Assembly: GCA_044373065.1 (NCBI GenBank)
Contig: JBILQT010000066.1
Span: 4,836-28,835 of the forward strand
Reading direction: 5' to 3'
Source: Sandaracinaceae bacterium
Lineage (GTDB): Bacteria > Myxococcota_A > Polyangia > Polyangiales > Sandaracinaceae
Length of the DNA stretch: 24,000 bases
A model generated the notes under the pieces. It saw only the letters and a program-made list of their open reading frames with translations, ran no database searches and was not told where the DNA came from. The position numbers and the translations under genes were made by a program. Below are positions 739 to 18,528 of the stretch, one piece after another (the stretch's first letter is position 1; the number at the start of each line of letters is the position of its first letter).

Positions 739-1215
739 TCAGTGCTGTGTGAACCCAGTGAAGCGCGCGATCTGATTCGACAGCAGCTCCACATCGCCCT
801 CGTCGCGGCTCACGCCGATGCGCATGCGCTTTCCGTTGTGCAGCACCACGTCGAGCGATCGACCAACCACCCACTCATTCCGTGTCTCGAGATGCGCGAT
901 GCTCGAGAAGAGCACTGTCTGCCCGCCGTCATCGCGCTGGATGGCGCGCATCTTTCGGTCGACGGTGAATGAGCGTTGCTTGGCGATGCGCCTGGCGAAG
1001 AGAAGCCCGTAGGAGCCCCCAAGAATCGCGAACGGGATCATCAAGACAACGTAGGGGCGATAGTGGTCGTCGTAGACGATTTCCACGAACTCAAGGATGG
1101 CGAGGAAGAGCCCGCACACCGCCATGACAGCGGCCATCATCCGGAGCTTTCCTGCATCCGTCTCAACGCGCATCACGTCCCCATCGGTACTGATCTCAGG
1201 CAGAAGCTCGAACAT
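739..1215 (-). CDS. small 2-TM membrane protein with soluble C-terminal domain (paralog A of a tandem pair)
   Basis: ORF 739..1305 trimmed to ATG at 1215 (MFELLPEISTDGDV...), with a strong AAGGAGAG Shine-Dalgarno 4 nt upstream. Two hydrophobic helices (MMAAVMAVCGLFLAILEFVEIV and VVLMIPFAILGGSYGLLFA) are followed by FTVDRKMRAIQRDDGGQTVLFSSIAHLE...VLHNGKRMRIG. This parallels YHFDRQARVVRRGNGSQAIFVGISHLQ...LKNGKRWII in the downstream gene. Confidence 0.6.
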   Translation of the reverse strand: MFELLPEISTDGDVMRVETDAGKLRMMAAVMAVCGLFLAILEFVEIVYDDHYRPYVVLMIPFAILGGSYGLLFARRIAKQRSFTVDRKMRAIQRDDGGQTVLFSSIAHLETRNEWVVGRSLDVVLHNGKRMRIGVSRDEGDVELLSNQIARFTGFTQH

Positions 1216-1303
1216 CCGACTCTCCTTGGATTGCTCACCTGGCTGGCGCGTTTGGCGCCTCCCATCTCTCGACTTGCGCCCGACCTTCGCGCACGAAGCG
1301 CGC

Positions 1304-1792
1304 ATGAGTCAACCGAAGTTTTGCCTTCGCTGCGGCACCGCACTTGTCCCCGTCACACTCGAAGAGCGCACGCGCTTGCGCTGCGCCTCGGATGACTGCG
1401 GCTACATCCACTACGGCAATCCGACGCCTGTGGTCGCGGCGATTGTGCAGCTGGGCGAGGATGTGATTCTCGCGCGAAACAAGGGCTGGCCTGAGGGGAT
1501 GTACGGGCTTGTGACGGGCTTTCTTGAGGCGAACGAGACGCCGGAGGAAGGCGCGCTGCGCGAGGTGAAGGAAGAGCTCTCGCTGGTCGGCGAGGTGCGC
1601 TCTCTCGTCGGTGCGTATGCCTTCCCGCATCGCAATGAGATCATCATCGCCTACCACGTGGTGGCAGAGGGCGAGCCGGTGGTCGGCGAGGAGCTCGCGG
1701 GCATCAAGCGCGTGCCGATTGCGAAGCTGCGGCCCTGGCCCTTCGCGACGGGCGATGCGGTGCGGGATTGGCTCAAGACGCGATCGCGCTGA
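1304..1792 (+). CDS. NUDIX hydrolase with N-terminal zinc ribbon (NudC / NADH pyrophosphatase-like, short form)
   Basis: ORF 1097..1792 trimmed to ATG 1304 (MSQPKFCLRCG...). It has a CxxC...CxxxxC zinc ribbon (CLRCG...CASDDCG) and a Nudix box GFLEANETPEEGALREVKEELSL (Gx5Ex7REUxEExGU). The downstream RPWPFATG resembles the NudC-type SQPWPFPxS motif. The upstream part of the long ORF overlaps the divergent gene at 739..1215. Confidence 0.85.
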   Translation: MSQPKFCLRCGTALVPVTLEERTRLRCASDDCGYIHYGNPTPVVAAIVQLGEDVILARNKGWPEGMYGLVTGFLEANETPEEGALREVKEELSLVGEVRSLVGAYAFPHRNEIIIAYHVVAEGEPVVGEELAGIKRVPIAKLRPWPFATGDAVRDWLKTRSR

Positions 1793-3862: not shown

Positions 3863-4866
3863 CGGTTGGCCTGCATCATCTGAAGGAGTGCTGCGGCTCC
3901 GAGCGCGCGGCGTGTCTCATCGGGCGTGAGGTTCGTCTGAAGGTCGATGGCGGTGCCTGCACGCGTGCCTTGAAGTGCTTCGAGCGGGCGGCTCAAACCG
4001 GCGCTGCGCACAAGGAAATGGCCTGCGTACTGGGCTGCGTATGCGGTGACCCAATCGAGTGCGGATTGCGCGTCCGCTTCATTCGCGAAGTCCGCGTGGA
4101 TGTAGACGAAGAGGTAGTGGGTCGCGTCGTCTTCCATCACGTTGACGCGCGTCGTGTTGGGTGGCGTTGGGTAGCCCGCGTAGGCCGGAAGACGATCACG
4201 GATGTCAGCCGTCGCGAGCTCTTGCGCGGCGAAGTTCAACGTCGGCTCGACGACCATGTCGGCGTTGCCTGCACGACGAAGCGCCTGGTTGCGCGCGACC
4301 TCTGCGATGCGTGCGACGTCATCCGTTGGGCAGATGACAATCTCATGTGCGGCCGTGAGCACGACCGAGTGTGGAATCGCGAGGGGGACGGGCAGCGTGC
4401 TGACCGCGAAGCCGCCAGCCTCACTCCATGTGAGCGGGATCGAGCGCGCGATCGACATCTGCAGCAGGTGATCGCGAATCATCGCCTCGGTGCCCACGTA
4501 GCGCAGCACAGCGACACGCCTGTCGGCGTAGAGCGCCTCGGAGGCGATCACCATCGCGTCGAGCTCCTGCACTGGCTGAATGCCCGAGCCTGCCGTCAGC
4601 TCCTGCCACATCGCCTGGCCTGCAATCGCTGACTCCACATCGGCTGCGACGGGCGAGCGACGCACGCGCGCCATGTCGAGCTTCGCAAGGACGCGGTGCG
4701 CCTCAGGCAGGAACGAGGGCGGCGGTCCGACAGGCGCTTCCGATCCAGAAGTGCCGTTGTTGCTGTTGCCTTCCTCGGGCGACGCGCCTCCGCCGCAACC
4801 GATGAGCGCGGTGAAGGCGAGTGCGTAAAGCGTGAGCAGGAGGAAGGGTCGTCGAGCGTTCGTCAT
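3859..4866 (-). CDS. hypothetical lipoprotein
   Basis: 335-aa ORF, ATG at 4866. The signal/lipobox is MTNARRPFLLLTLYALAFTALIGCGG, followed by a Gly/Ser/Pro linker. It is translationally coupled (ATGA overlap) to the S9 peptidase gene. I recognise no family. Confidence 0.7.
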
Positions 4867-4887: not shown

Positions 4888-5373
4888 TCACACAGGCCAC
4901 AGGCGTCGAAAGCTGACGGCGAGAATCGTCTTGGCCTCGTTCTCCACGAGCGCGCCGTAGCGACATTTCTCGACGAGCATCCCGGACTGCATCGCGTTCT
5001 TGCGATCGACAAAGCGCACGCGCGCGCCCTCATGAAGCTGCGCGAAGACGAGCGCATCGGCGGCCACATCGGCCAGCGCATGCCCGTGGGAGGCGTCGGC
5101 TGTGCCCCGAATGCGCGCGTGCGGCACGCGGTGCAGTCGCCCCTCACCCACCCAGACATCGGCATCCTCGTGCGAGGCAAAGACAAGCGCGCCCTCGAGC
5201 GCCTTGCCCCGCACATCGACGAACTGCACGAGCACGCCGGGATTCATCCCAAGGGGCGGAAACATCGCAGCCTCGATGCGCCCGCCGAGGGCCGCGCGGG
5301 CCTCATCCACCGAGGGCGGGGCATGGCTCACGGAGGCGGCGGCGCCGAGGGAGGGCAGGCTTCGCTTGGTCAT
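4888..5373 (-). CDS. hypothetical protein (about 161 aa)
   Basis: This is the C-terminal part of ORF 4888..5847, trimmed to ATG 5373 (MTKRSLPSLGAAAS...). In a hand count of 5221-5280, the third-codon phase is about 80% GC, consistent with coding. That phase bias disappears upstream of about 5400. The start is uncertain; the internal ATGs MFPPLG and MNPGVL are alternatives. No family recognised. Confidence 0.5.
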   Translation of the reverse strand: MTKRSLPSLGAAASVSHAPPSVDEARAALGGRIEAAMFPPLGMNPGVLVQFVDVRGKALEGALVFASHEDADVWVGEGRLHRVPHARIRGTADASHGHALADVAADALVFAQLHEGARVRFVDRKNAMQSGMLVEKCRYGALVENEAKTILAVSFRRLWPV

Positions 5374-5453
5374 CCTGGCAGTGTGACCGCTCCGTCGCGG
5401 ATTCCGAATCGGAACCTGCGTCGTTTTCCAGGGACTCTCTGCGTCTTGAGCCG

Positions 5454-5723
5454 CCCACGAGCCCGTGGTTTGCAAAACGAGGGGAGGAAAGGGCAACCAC
5501 GAGCTCGTGGTTGGGAGAACGAGACGAAGAAAGCGAATCCACGAGGCCGTGGGTGCGCTTTCCTCTGCCGGGATCGCCAACCACGAACTCGTGGGCGGCG
5601 CTTTGTGTGCTGGAATTCCGAACCACGAGGCCGTGGTTGGACAAACCTTGCCTCCTTGTGCCAACCACGAGGTCGTGGGCCGCGTTTGGAGCGGGCGTTG
5701 GCACAACCACGAGGTCGTGGGTC
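5454..5723. repeat. array 1: seven inverted-repeat units (consensus AACCACGA-N3-CGTGGTT) at an exact 42-bp period
   Basis: The invariant core CCACGA...CGTGG starts at 5455, 5497, 5539, 5581, 5623, 5665 and 5707, so all six intervals are exactly 42 bp. The unit at 5494-5513 is a perfect 20-bp palindrome (CAACCACGAGCTCGTGGTTG). The ~24-bp spacers are diverged. Non-coding by phase-GC count; see findings. Confidence 0.85.
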
Positions 5724-5740
5724 CGCGAAACCCTAGGCGC

Positions 5741-6253
5741 TCACTCGGTCCAGGCGCCGTGCATCGCGGTGCACTGTGTCTGCGCGGCTTCCGTCGTGGA
5801 GGGGTGCTCGCCGGTTGCGTAGAAGTAGGAGACGTAGGCGCCAGCACCCATCGTCATCGCACAGCCGCCCGCGACCCCTGGGACGCGTCCCTCGGTGGGG
5901 CAGCGCACGGTGTTGGACACGGCGCCTGGGCCGCCCTGGCCTGCGGTGCGGACGGCCATCCCGTTGAAGCCCTGGAGCATTGCGGCGGCTGCGGCGGGGT
6001 CGTCGGGCAGATCGGCGGCGATCTCCATGCACTGACCGTTGGCCGCAATCGTGTTCACCGAGAGCTGGAAGGTGCCGTAGTTGCCGATGCGTGCGGGCGC
6101 GGCAGGTGCAGCAGGCGCTGCAGGTGCGACCACGGCGGGTGCCTCCACAACGGCGGGCACAACCGACGCGACGGGGGCTGCACCCTCGGGCGCCGCGGTC
6201 TCCCCGCATCCAACAAGGGCCAACGAGAGGAGGAGGGATCGCGTCTTGGTCAT
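5741..6253 (-). CDS. hypothetical lipoprotein with Ala/Pro-rich linker and Cys-containing C-terminal domain
   Basis: ORF 5741..6352 trimmed to ATG 6253 (MTKTRSLLLSLALVGCGE, classic lipobox), with GGAGAAA 6 nt upstream. An AP-rich linker (APAVVAPAAPAAPAAPA) precedes a ~110-aa domain with 4 Cys. No family recognised. Confidence 0.7.
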   Translation of the reverse strand: MTKTRSLLLSLALVGCGETAAPEGAAPVASVVPAVVEAPAVVAPAAPAAPAAPARIGNYGTFQLSVNTIAANGQCMEIAADLPDDPAAAAAMLQGFNGMAVRTAGQGGPGAVSNTVRCPTEGRVPGVAGGCAMTMGAGAYVSYFYATGEHPSTTEAAQTQCTAMHGAWTE

Positions 6254-6379
6254 GCTGTTTTTCTCCACGCCGTGAATGGCGGAGTCGAACGATGCGGTGC
6301 CTCCACCGCGCGCGCTTGGAGATGAATCGGACGGCGTCCGGCCCTCACGCACGCCCTCGCGCGCTCAGCTCACGACGCC

Positions 6380-14384: not shown

Positions 14385-15389
14385 ATGCGTCGTTTGTCCA
14401 TTGGCTTGATGGTTTGTGTCGGTGGTTGGGCCATTGCCGGCTGTCCCCCGTCCACACGTACCGACGCAGGCGTCGGAATTGATGCCAACCTTGGAACGAC
14501 GGACGCGAACGTTCCGCGCAATGACGCTTTCGTGGCAGCCTGCGCGACGATGGGCCCCGAGGACACGGCAACGGCCTGTGCTGACGGTTGCAACAACGAC
14601 GGCGACGGCTTCGCGGATTGCGATGACTTCGATTGCTGCGACGTCGTCACCTGCGGCCCCGCGACGGGCTGTGGCCGCCGCACGATGAATGACGCTGGTG
14701 TTCGCGCCGACGCGTTCGTTCCGGCCTGCGCAACGACGGGCCCTGAGGACACCGCGACGGCATGCGCCGACGGCTGCAACAACGATGGCGACGCCTTCGC
14801 CGACTGCAACGACTTCGACTGCTGTGACGTCGTTACCTGCGGTGCGGACACGGGCTGCGGACGTCGTGCGATGCGCGATGCCGGCCCACGCGCCGACGCG
14901 GCTGTGATGGCCTGCGCGGTCACGGGCCCTGAGAACACCGCGGGTGCCTGTGGCGATGCCTGCGACAACGACGGCGACGGCTTCTTTGATTGCGGCGATT
15001 TCGATTGCTGCCGCGTCATCTCGGGCTGCGGCCCGACGACGGCATGCGGACGCGATGCTGGCACGAGCACCCGCGATGCAGGCCCGAGTACCCGCTGTGA
15101 TGCAGGCGCTGGCGCTGCTGCCGAAATGGGCATGGCCGCTTGCACGGACGGCATCGACAACGACTGCGATGGCTTCACCGATTGCCGCGACTTCGGCTGC
15201 AACCGCGATGCGCCCACGCCGCGTGACTACTGCGTCACGACGCCGGAGAACACGCTCGCAGCCTGCTCCGACACAATGGACAACGACCTGAACGGCTTCA
15301 TCGACTGCAACGATCGCAACTGCTGCGGCATCCGCACCGTCGCGTCGTGCGAGGCGGGTTCGTACATCGCTCGCGGCAGCTGCCCCTGA
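14385..15389 (+). CDS. Cys/Asp-rich repeat lipoprotein with five DxDxDG-type (MopE-like putative metal/Ca-binding) modules
   Basis: 334-aa ORF, ATG 14385 with GAGGAG 5 nt upstream, lipobox GGWAIAGC. There are five copies of C-x-DG-x-(N/D)NDGDGF-x-DC-x-DFDCC, for example CADGCNNDGDGFADCDDFDCC and CTDGIDNDCDGFTDCRDFGC. DNDGDGFADCDD fits an EF-hand/Excalibur-like DxDxDG loop. The gene starts 30 nt after comEA-like. Confidence 0.8.
   Translation: MRRLSIGLMVCVGGWAIAGCPPSTRTDAGVGIDANLGTTDANVPRNDAFVAACATMGPEDTATACADGCNNDGDGFADCDDFDCCDVVTCGPATGCGRRTMNDAGVRADAFVPACATTGPEDTATACADGCNNDGDAFADCNDFDCCDVVTCGADTGCGRRAMRDAGPRADAAVMACAVTGPENTAGACGDACDNDGDGFFDCGDFDCCRVISGCGPTTACGRDAGTSTRDAGPSTRCDAGAGAAAEMGMAACTDGIDNDCDGFTDCRDFGCNRDAPTPRDYCVTTPENTLAACSDTMDNDLNGFIDCNDRNCCGIRTVASCEAGSYIARGSCP
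14520..15059 (+). repeat. intragenic tandem repeat: three ~186-189-bp (62-63 aa) modules; two degenerate modules follow to ~15386
   Basis: ACATMGPEDTATACADGCNNDGDGFADCDDFDCCDVVTCGPATGCGRR, ACATTGPEDTATACADGCNNDGDAFADCNDFDCCDVVTCGADTGCGRR and ACAVTGPENTAGACGDACDNDGDGFFDCGDFDCCRVISGCGPTTACGR. The module Cys positions recur at 63- and 62-aa offsets. Confidence 0.75.
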
Positions 15390-17317: not shown

Positions 17318-18528
17318 TCCCAGCGAGCAACCTGATGCGCGGCCTAAGCGGGGCTTGCCTCGCCGGCGTCACGTTGCTCGCAAGCGCTTGCTCCGGGGCG
17401 TTTCCGGCCATCGCAAGCTACTCGGACAGGATGGACCGGATCACGGGTGATTCGGGCATGGGGCGTTTCTCGCTCCGCTGGTCACGACGCCTTGGGGCGG
17501 ACCTGGCCCTGAACGAGTTGATGTCGGGCGTGACGGTCCCGGTCGAGCGCGCGGTTCCGACGCTGGATTCACTGCACGACCGCATCTTCGTGGGTTCGAG
17601 CACGGGCCAGTTGTGGTGCTTCACGGGCTCAGGATTGCGGCTCTGGATGTATCAGGCCGGCGGTGGAATTGGCGCTCCGCCAAGCCTCAGTCTCGACCGC
17701 CGGACGATCTACGTCGGCAGCGATGACGGCTTTCTCCATGCGCTCGACGCGACCTCCGGCCGCCTGCTCTGGCGCGGGGAGATGCTTGGCTCGCTCGGCA
17801 AGTCGCCGGTCGTCACCGAGGACGCTGTCTACATCGTGACCGACAACGATGTGGTGGGCGCCTACGACCGAAGCACGGGCGATGCGCTCTGGCGCTTTGA
17901 ACGCCAAGCCCCCGAGGGCTTCTACGTCACCGACCACGCAGGTCTTGTGCTTGCCGACCGTCGCCTCATCACGGGCTTTACGGACGGCGCCGTCGTCGCG
18001 CTCGACCCAAGTGATGGCCGCGTGCTCTGGGTTCGCGACACCACCGCCGACATGGACACGCACTCCGACGAGCTGCGCTTCACCGATGTCGATACGACCC
18101 CCGTTGTGCTTGGCGAGAGCGTCTACGTCGCCTCGTTCGCGGGTGGCCTCTACGCCCTTGAGGCGGCGAGCGGGAGCGTGCGCTGGGTGCGCCCCGAGTG
18201 GACGGGCGTGGTTGCGTTGGCTGACGCCGGAGGAGGCCGTTTGGCGCTCGCATCGGGCGACTTCGGGATTCAATCGGTCCGCATGGACAACGGCGACAGG
18301 CTTTGGAGCACGCCCGTCCGGCGCGGGGCTCCCACGAGCATCAGCATCGTTGGCGACAGCATCGTCTACGGCGAGACCACGGGCGGGCTTGTGACGCTCA
18401 CCTCGCTCGGTCGCGAGATCTCGCGCTATGAGGATGGCCACGGTTTCGCGGCACCGATCGCCATCGAAGCAGGCCTCGCAGCGGTCGTCTCGAACGCCGG
18501 CACGCTTCTCGTCTTCGCGGTGCGCTAG
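17314..18528 (+). CDS. bamB: outer membrane protein assembly factor BamB-like lipoprotein (PQQ-like beta-propeller)
   Basis: 404-aa ORF. ATG 17314 overlaps the upstream stop (ATGA at 17314-17317); ATG 17335 is an alternative. The lipobox-like signal is GVTLLASACSG. It has repeated PQQ/BamB blade motifs (IFVGSSTGQLWCF, IYVGSDDGFLHALDATSGRLLWR, VYIVTDNDVVGAYDRSTGDALWRF, GAVVALDPSDGRVLWV, GGLYALEAASGSVRWV). Confidence 0.8.
   Translation: MIPASNLMRGLSGACLAGVTLLASACSGAFPAIASYSDRMDRITGDSGMGRFSLRWSRRLGADLALNELMSGVTVPVERAVPTLDSLHDRIFVGSSTGQLWCFTGSGLRLWMYQAGGGIGAPPSLSLDRRTIYVGSDDGFLHALDATSGRLLWRGEMLGSLGKSPVVTEDAVYIVTDNDVVGAYDRSTGDALWRFERQAPEGFYVTDHAGLVLADRRLITGFTDGAVVALDPSDGRVLWVRDTTADMDTHSDELRFTDVDTTPVVLGESVYVASFAGGLYALEAASGSVRWVRPEWTGVVALADAGGGRLALASGDFGIQSVRMDNGDRLWSTPVRRGAPTSISIVGDSIVYGETTGGLVTLTSLGREISRYEDGHGFAAPIAIEAGLAAVVSNAGTLLVFAVR

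Follow-up and report, generated by a model that had tools for sequence, protein, structure and literature searches.

A portable, non-coding repeat element of seven palindromes held in exact 42-bp register in a Sandaracinaceae bacterium

Seven short palindromes follow one another at intervals of exactly 42 bp between two genes of a Sandaracinaceae bacterium, in the 24,000-nucleotide stretch that we analysed (assembly GCA_044373065.1, contig JBILQT010000066.1, positions 4,836 to 28,835; hereafter the window, whose own numbering is used). This array is one copy of a discrete, portable, non-coding repeat element of ~275 bp. The same block stands beside unrelated genes at two metagenomic loci, L150 and L160, and is missing at orthologous loci of relatives, which runs counter to a preliminary description of the window that had read the array chiefly as a phased operator, upstream activating sequence (UAS) or iteron array belonging to this one gap.

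The array lies within a 367-bp gap that runs from the stop codon of a lipoprotein gene (5741) to the start codon of a gene for a 161-aa protein (5373), both on the minus strand. Seven cores, CCACGANNNCGTGG, start at 5455, 5497, 5539, 5581, 5623, 5665 and 5707 with zero mismatches, and the spacing between successive CCACGA-N3-CGTGG cores is 42 bp without exception (span 5455–5720). These cores, their invariant arms and their exact interval had been set out in the preliminary description; a pattern search recovers them, and Tandem Repeats Finder (TRF), run independently, gives a period of 42 for the array. When one mismatch or fewer is allowed, the pattern has 15 strand-matches in the 24-kb window against 1.18 expected, none of 100 shuffles reaches 15, and the sole match beyond the array, at 18438, carries one mismatch. 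The same locus with its array is present in independent assemblies, of which L121 is 99.98% identical and L169 has the same seven cores. The source organism is represented in ENA ERZ27272062 and in JGI 3300043470, 3300042311 and 3300046000.

The whole element (5447–5722, delimited by BLASTN and nhmmer against L160 and L150) comprises seven 42-bp units and a short conserved end, GCGGCTCA. Each unit consists of a 14-bp palindrome (consensus CCACGA-SS-TCGTGG, usually with TTG next) and a 28-bp spacer. What we call the forward orientation of the element, as on the plus strand of L160, is the minus strand of the window. Read along the plus strand, core 1 (CCACGAGCCCGTGG, 5455–5468) is forward unit 7 and core 7 (CCACGAGGTCGTGG, 5707–5720, found by pattern search and BLASTN) is forward unit 1, the left end of the element. 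Core 2 (CCACGAGCTCGTGG, 5497–5510) is the centre of a 20-bp palindrome at 5494–5513, confirmed here to be perfect as had been stated, and core 3 (CCACGAGGCCGTGG, 5539–5552) is the tip of an extended hairpin at 5526–5565, with 18-nt arms that are 83% complementary. Core 4 (CCACGAACTCGTGG, 5581–5594), core 5 (CCACGAGGCCGTGG, 5623–5636) and core 6 (CCACGAGGTCGTGG, 5665–5678), like core 1, come from the pattern search. The earlier statement that most units extend to AACCACG...CGTGGTT was too generous: the AA extension is present in five of the seven units, TT in three and both together in only two. The spacers do differ among units, as had been noted, but they are not unrelated, since adjacent units match at 71–78% (TRF) and the GA-rich and TC-rich spacers are ~76% reverse-complementary to one another.

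The 20-mer CAACCACGAGNNCGTGGTTG, sought throughout a metagenome collection, matched at 36 loci. Of these, 34 were isolated single matches on unrelated contigs with GC contents of 0.32–0.73, at about chance level, and the other two, L150 and L160 (both from one sample, JGI 3300007517, Ga0105045), were seven-unit arrays with an exact 42-bp period. L160 1140–1415 aligned unit by unit and ungapped with window 5722–5447 (276 bp, 72.1% identity), and L150 1129–1386 aligned with window 5721–5464 (both BLASTN); an nhmmer search on the array homology gave E=6e-90. The limits of the homology are sharp: it begins at the first core and stops 8 bp past the last, where CGTGG is followed by GCGGCTCA. The flanks are unrelated in all three contexts and the flanking proteins are non-homologous. 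Every array copy seen has seven units, with three of the seven cores imperfect in L160 and in L150. All three contexts are intergenic: the L150 array begins 5 bp past the stop codon of a gene for a 372-aa secreted protein, the L160 array has a lipoprotein operon on one side and a Uma2-family nuclease gene on the other and is oriented opposite to transcription, and the window and L160 arrays both lie between co-directional genes. The L150 contig terminates within the array, an assembly behaviour like that of repeats.

Lipoprotein or secreted-protein genes adjoin all three array copies. A 95-bp segment encoding the signal peptide of a small secreted protein is shared at 87% identity by L150 (21–115) and L160 (2720–2812), on opposite sides of the arrays; either two arrays would bracket a secreted-protein cassette of ~3.5 kb, or an array may have moved locally.

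Orthologous loci of relatives mostly have no array. At L172, where the lipoprotein is 93% identical and the synteny of PMM and lipoprotein genes is kept, homology ends right past the stop codon, and a 449-bp gap with no core leads to a different gene. No array was found at L173, with a lipoprotein 87% identical, and no core was found upstream of the 161-aa orthologues of five lineages (L131, L124/125, L126, L132 and L128–130; 52–75% identity), whose upstream gaps are 50–112 bp or have different neighbour genes. Because orthologous loci mostly have no array, the window array lies at a synteny breakpoint and is not a conserved regulatory region of either neighbour. Ungapped homology of the block within differing flanks, together with orthologous gaps that have no array, identifies it as a discrete portable element rather than a local operator array. 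The phased-array reading had looked to spacing being kept at orthologous loci; most such loci have no array to compare, whereas every array copy that was found keeps exactly 42 bp.

At L127, whose 161-aa orthologue is 79% identical, the 347-bp upstream gap holds a different-looking repeat of 42-bp period (L127 380–506), in which CCACAAnTGTTGG occurs at 381 and 423, GCCACAAnTGTTGGT at 380 and 422, and an exact 20-mer, GTGTCGCGCGGCTTTGCGCT, at 435 and 477. This repeat was not detected as a homologue of the array by nhmmer; from a likeness judged by eye, it may be a degenerate relative. A gene caller had absorbed the region as an N-terminal extension (P0002, 215 aa). A half-core-like motif, ACCACGAG(G/C)C, is present beside the glmM start in the gap between the divergent glmM and 161-aa genes (L127 170–190, L131 ~905–925 and L124 ~3935–3950). 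The L127 copy agrees with window cores along 12 nt, and the motif could be a seed or a remnant of the repeat.

Comparison of the three copies distinguishes the constrained parts, the sequence of the sites and their spacing, from those that vary freely. The window and L160 match at 82 of 98 core positions and have 5-bp arms that are ~94% identical, against 113 of 168 matching spacer positions (~67%) even with flips allowed, and spacers have diverged to 55–79% identity. The 42-bp register is undisturbed in every copy. The preliminary description had proposed that cores and register are constrained while spacers drift with no phase-shifting indel, and the comparison of the window with L160 and L150 agrees.

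Some spacers have been inverted. Forward spacer 2 (5637–5664), identified by matching to L160 and by folding, is a quasi-palindrome and is flipped with respect to the homologous L160 spacer (21 of 28 positions match when reverse-complemented versus 15 of 28 directly), and spacer 3 is flipped between L150 and L160 (26 of 28 versus 9 of 28). Inverted half-palindromes of the adjoining cores stand at both ends of each spacer, spacers 2 and 4 are themselves quasi-palindromes, and forward spacer 2, taken as CGTGG+spacer+CCACG, folds at −17.6 kcal/mol versus −10.7±2.6 in shuffles. Given this bracketing and quasi-palindromy, hairpin-mediated micro-inversion would be a natural mechanism, with spacers flipping by hairpin-mediated template switching or by recombination, and the array offers a clean natural case of such micro-inversion of single 28-bp spacers.

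The array is non-coding, as had been thought probable. Substitutions between the window and L160 fall 9:18:16 by codon phase, with no third-position excess, and the three codon phases of the array have GC contents of 0.69, 0.70 and 0.49, whereas third-position values (GC3) are 0.76–0.86 in five flanking genes, so that no frame attains the GC3 of genes. When 1.84 billion protein representatives were searched exhaustively with an HMMER profile, the only matches were the L160 array's own open reading frame (ORF) and unrelated low-complexity proteins; a six-frame concatenated translation searched against 5.8 billion proteins gave no match among the best 8000 candidates, which is weak evidence. In L121 and L169, gene callers placed no gene across the array. 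A protein-coding repeat of 14 aa (for example TTSWL- or NHEVV-type), whether extending the 161-aa protein or added to the lipoprotein as a tail by read-through, would fit a 42-bp unit of 14 codons free of indels. Five of the six frames are indeed open across the window array, where at least four had been counted, and an ORF at 4888–5847 (−) spans it in frame with the 161-aa gene (the TTSWL frame). Open frame and strand nevertheless vary among the copies, L150 and L160 have stops in several frames, and spacer inversions would rewrite entire repeat units. Such a repeat protein, which the preliminary description had named as evidence that would tell against its own reading, thus finds no support from substitution phase, GC3 or protein families, and we regard it as barely credible.

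Two further observations bear on coding. In L160 a called 182-aa ORF (1097–1645, minus strand; protein P0049), with a lipoprotein-like signal peptide, VKRVLLASLLMLGCSETA, that resembles that of the window lipoprotein, reads through the array; the array part of it is probably not translated. In an actinobacterial secreted protein (L040, L056 and L058) the same DNA core does encode TTTPW-type repeats, so palindromy alone would not exclude coding. At these loci (L040 7127–7330, L056 622–816 and L058 928–1085) the core, again with TTG as its tail (CCACGGCGTCGTGGTTGTC), recurs every 33, 39 and 36 bp and encodes TTTTPW... units of a secreted Pro/Thr-rich protein common to a Mycobacterium species and an Actinomycetota metagenome-assembled genome. 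They are unrelated to the myxobacterial element.

As RNA, both strands of the array fold far better than shuffles (−151 and −157 kcal/mol, z = −5.9 and −6.4), with a minimum-energy fold that is one long composite hairpin and not seven separate ones. Single core hairpins reach about −10 to −21 kcal/mol, and unit 5 of L160 and L150, the equivalent of window core 3, forms a perfect 30-nt hairpin of −21.2 kcal/mol. Across 18 aligned units there was no compensatory change in the stems (73.1% of cells pair versus 74.0% in column shuffles; covariation score 0.150 versus 0.149), and the core pairs, being invariant across units, are uninformative on covariation. Rfam returned nothing at gathering thresholds, the best match below them being a miRNA-precursor-like hairpin at 32.6 bits against a gathering threshold of 67. 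A scan of the gap found no sigma-70-like promoter, and inspection by eye found no sigma-54 GG-N10-GC in the right register. The two U-tract terminators found compare with 1.0±1.0 expected, promoter-like sites are likewise not above chance, and there is no conserved promoter within the homology block.

Tentatively, and with slightly less than even confidence, we take the architecture to be that of an element like a bacterial interspersed mosaic element (BIME), that is, a cluster of repetitive extragenic palindromes (REPs), with the cores as putative recognition sites of a sequence-specific protein. A REP/BIME-like element had been the second choice of the preliminary description; it is the closest known kind in architecture, although the array is apparently low in copy, shows no strict alternation and has no REP-associated tyrosine transposase (RAYT) gene in sight. 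Regularly spaced REP clusters have been described and dominate in Xanthomonas campestris (PMC2817692). Like REPs and BIMEs (such as BIME-2 of E. coli), the element is extragenic and consists of GC-rich short palindromes clustered at regular spacing (PMC2817692, PMC3333891); it is often just 3' of genes, has units in both orientations and occurs in several contexts. REPs are imperfect palindromes of about 20–40 nt; those of the element have a 14-bp core and extend up to 20 bp (5494–5513) and 30–40 bp (5526–5565). The GTGG/CCAC edge of the element's palindromes, from which none of the seven window cores departs and which 17 of the 18 units compared retain, is comparable to the GT[A/G]G head of REPs, a likeness that does not imply functional equivalence, and stems conserved as sequence suggest recognition by a protein.

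A BIME-like element of this kind would be carried or rearranged as a block and would sit in intergenic DNA, often just after a stop codon and in either orientation relative to the flanking genes. Its conserved half-sites would be recognised by a sequence-specific protein, either a Y1 transposase-like enzyme associated with REPs or a host dimeric DNA-binding protein, and the 42-bp spacing, equal to 4.0 turns at 10.5 bp per turn, would set all sites on one face of the helix. Read-through from the upstream gene might then yield hairpins that stabilise or end the transcript, as REPs do.

A number of observations weigh against the BIME-like reading. REPs usually exceed 100 per genome and include solitary and doublet copies, whereas here whole seven-unit blocks are found, their unit order conserved as a block between species, and the element is apparently low-copy. 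The 32 kb of source genome covered (the window plus the L169 extension) hold a single array and not one solitary core, eight related contigs together provide ~32 kb free of cores, the metagenome-collection scan found only the two array loci, from one sample, and three independent array copies are known in all. The hundreds of dispersed single copies that the preliminary description had associated with an ordinary REP family were not seen, with no core outside arrays in the 32 kb of source genome. No RAYT, transposase or recombinase gene was found in the window or the 8.2-kb extension provided by L169. Neither a target-site duplication nor a clean empty site was definable against L172, L131, L124 or L127, as the flanks are unalignable past the stop and start codons. 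Strict alternation of units was not seen: the cores are too nearly symmetric for their orientation to be read, and the spacers, though present in both orientations, do not strictly alternate. Neutral DNA at ~28% divergence over 276 bp would, on a rough estimate, be expected to have gained a few indels. Zero indels in 276 bp at 72% identity, hard to explain by amplification history alone, point to functional constraint on the phasing, which favours a platform for DNA binding.

Such a platform would be a low-copy, phased set of seven host sites for a dimeric DNA-binding protein, serving origin-near segregation or organisation, or titration of a regulator. Its architecture would parallel that of sopC, the centromere of the F plasmid, where SopB binds a 16-bp inverted repeat present in each of 12 direct repeats 43 bp long (PMC3177203). 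Both sopC and ParB/ParR centromeres share with the array tandem units of about four turns (43 versus 42 bp), an inverted repeat of 16 versus 14–20 bp and dimer sites on one DNA face. An exact period kept without an indel while spacers diverge to 55–79% and flip, half-sites both conserved as sequence without covariation, indifference to the orientation of flanking genes and apparent low copy number all speak for it. So does position: L169 adds 8.2 kb to the left of the window, ending in jag(KH/R3H)-yidC-yidD-rnpA (L169 11719–14694, 8 kb left of the window), and the array locus is origin-proximal because it lies ~13.5 kb from jag-yidC-yidD-rnpA. Yet no ParA, ParB or other DNA-binding gene adjoins any copy, with no ParA/ParB domains in the window, L169 or the neighbours of L150 and L160 (and no Cas domains in the window or L169). 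The array is also missing at the same positions in relatives with neighbour genes 87–93% identical, and three of the seven cores are imperfect in both metagenomic copies. Unlike sopC, the element has no adjacent sopAB/parAB genes, is chromosomal and in several contexts with no similarity to plasmid or phage records, and has diverged, flippable spacers in place of near-identical direct repeats. We consider a host platform unlikely on balance, while giving it serious weight. In its most specific form, this reading would make the array a chromosomal site of a kind not described before, centromere-like or nucleoid-organising, in a myxobacterial lineage, at which four-turn-phased palindromes nucleate a complex with a dimeric DNA-binding protein near the origin. 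Selection on site sequence and phasing alone would explain spacers that drift and flip without indels; we hold this form to be rather unlikely.

Two other explanations fare less well. The hairpins could act at the level of RNA, transcribed from the upstream gene into a 3' untranslated or intercistronic region where they block 3'–5' exonucleases or terminate transcription, as REPs do, or forming a multi-hairpin RNA that sponges a protein. The strong folding of the array and of its single cores would suit this, as would its start shortly past a stop codon, that of the lipoprotein gene in the window (21 bp) and another in L150 (5 bp), and its place between co-directional genes in the window and L160. 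The exact 42-nt spacing, however, has no obvious use in RNA, spacer inversion, though tolerated, gives the complementary RNA sequence, and the element occurs in both orientations relative to transcription; with no compensatory change in any stem, no internal conserved promoter, terminators at chance level and no Rfam match, we judge an RNA-level function quite improbable. A locus-specific operator or UAS array, through which a regulator controls the 161-aa gene or the lipoprotein operon, would be consistent with an array 82 bp upstream of the 161-aa gene start, with the different-looking 42-bp repeat directly upstream of the 79% identical orthologue in L127 and with the half-core-like ACCACGAG(G/C) conserved in the glmM-proximal gap of L127, L131 and L124. 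Against this stand the same block beside unrelated genes in L150 and L160, five lineages of 161-aa orthologues that have no array, a gap with no sigma-70-like promoter and an L127 repeat that nhmmer does not detect as homologous, and a local operator array is accordingly very unlikely.

Several other known kinds of repeat resemble the element in part. Mycobacterial interspersed repetitive units (MIRUs) and intergenic variable-number tandem repeats of mycobacteria are also tandem repeats of 40–100 bp that separate co-directional genes, and their period is divisible by three; the direct repeats of MIRUs are nearly identical, come with small coupled ORFs and vary in copy number, whereas the element has palindromic cores, differing spacers and, in every copy seen, seven units. 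CRISPR arrays likewise set short, partly palindromic repeats at regular intervals with non-identical spacers. We rejected this candidate: with a period of 42 bp, the core is only 14–20 bp long (versus at least 23 bp), the spacers of copies from different genomes are homologues of one another and so were not acquired, and there are no cas genes. Type III toxin–antitoxin systems have short tandem repeats (36–45 nt in toxI/cptI) directly upstream of a gene for ~160–170 aa, and were also rejected, as the 161-aa protein has Tudor/KOW-like barrels and no PADLOC match, orthologues occur without arrays and arrays without the gene, and the units are not near-identical. Nothing relevant came from searching the literature for myxobacterial REPs or for a palindromic intergenic repeat of 42 bp.

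Some further sequence matches to the core were set aside. A scan of a genome collection for two cores with a variable gap gave at least 119 loci; among the matches listed, the source genome is absent, so that the scan has no bearing on copy number, and these matches are chance pairs in coding-like sequence or unrelated coding repeats. The one viral-contig match was a chance match inside coding-like sequence, and BLASTN against plasmid and phage records gave no match.

If the element is BIME-like, phased clusters of palindromic units extend to uncultured, Sandaracinaceae-like members of the Myxococcota, a group scarcely surveyed for repeats, and do so in an unusual form: low in copy, fixed as a seven-unit block and in exact four-turn register. 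Should a host DNA-binding protein underlie the constraint, the array would serve as a ready probe for a new chromosome-organising or partition factor. With the element at synteny breakpoints and one contig ending inside it, it also matters for how these genomes are assembled and compared.

Both genes that flank the array are conserved, and homologues support both gene ends. The upstream gene (5741–6253, minus strand), with its stop codon 21 bp before the element, encodes the 170-aa lipoprotein, which has six homologues of 48–93% identity with the C-terminus conserved to the stop and no Pfam match. The downstream gene (4888–5373, minus strand), with its start codon 82 bp after the element, encodes the 161-aa protein, for which 48 homologues were found; the best named is from Sandaracinus amylolyticus, at 50% identity, which points to an uncultured, Sandaracinaceae-like myxobacterium as the source of the window. 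No match to this protein was found in Pfam, NCBIfam or PADLOC. Its AlphaFold model (mean predicted local distance difference test score, pLDDT, of 89) has two SH3/Tudor/KOW-like beta-barrels, and Foldseek matches are to tandem Tudor/KOW domains. The protein is restricted to Sandaracinaceae-like lineages. We do not link the array and the 161-aa gene, as arrays occur without the gene and the gene without arrays.

A strain-level break in synteny lies nearby at window 6376, just past the PMM stop codon: L123 is 100% identical over PMM and then switches abruptly to a convergent gene, and a different, convergent gene likewise follows PMM on a JGI 3300059473 contig that encodes an identical PMM protein. 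ENA contigs of one sample overlap by exactly 140 bp at 6376, which marks a graph branch. Elsewhere in the window, a gene at 14385–15389 (plus strand) encodes a 334-aa Cys/Asp-rich lipoprotein that falls in no Pfam family; it contains a 186-bp tandem repeat at 14523–14984 (2.5 copies, 77% matches), and the protein has repeated C.DGC(N/D)NDGDGF.DC.DFDCC modules.

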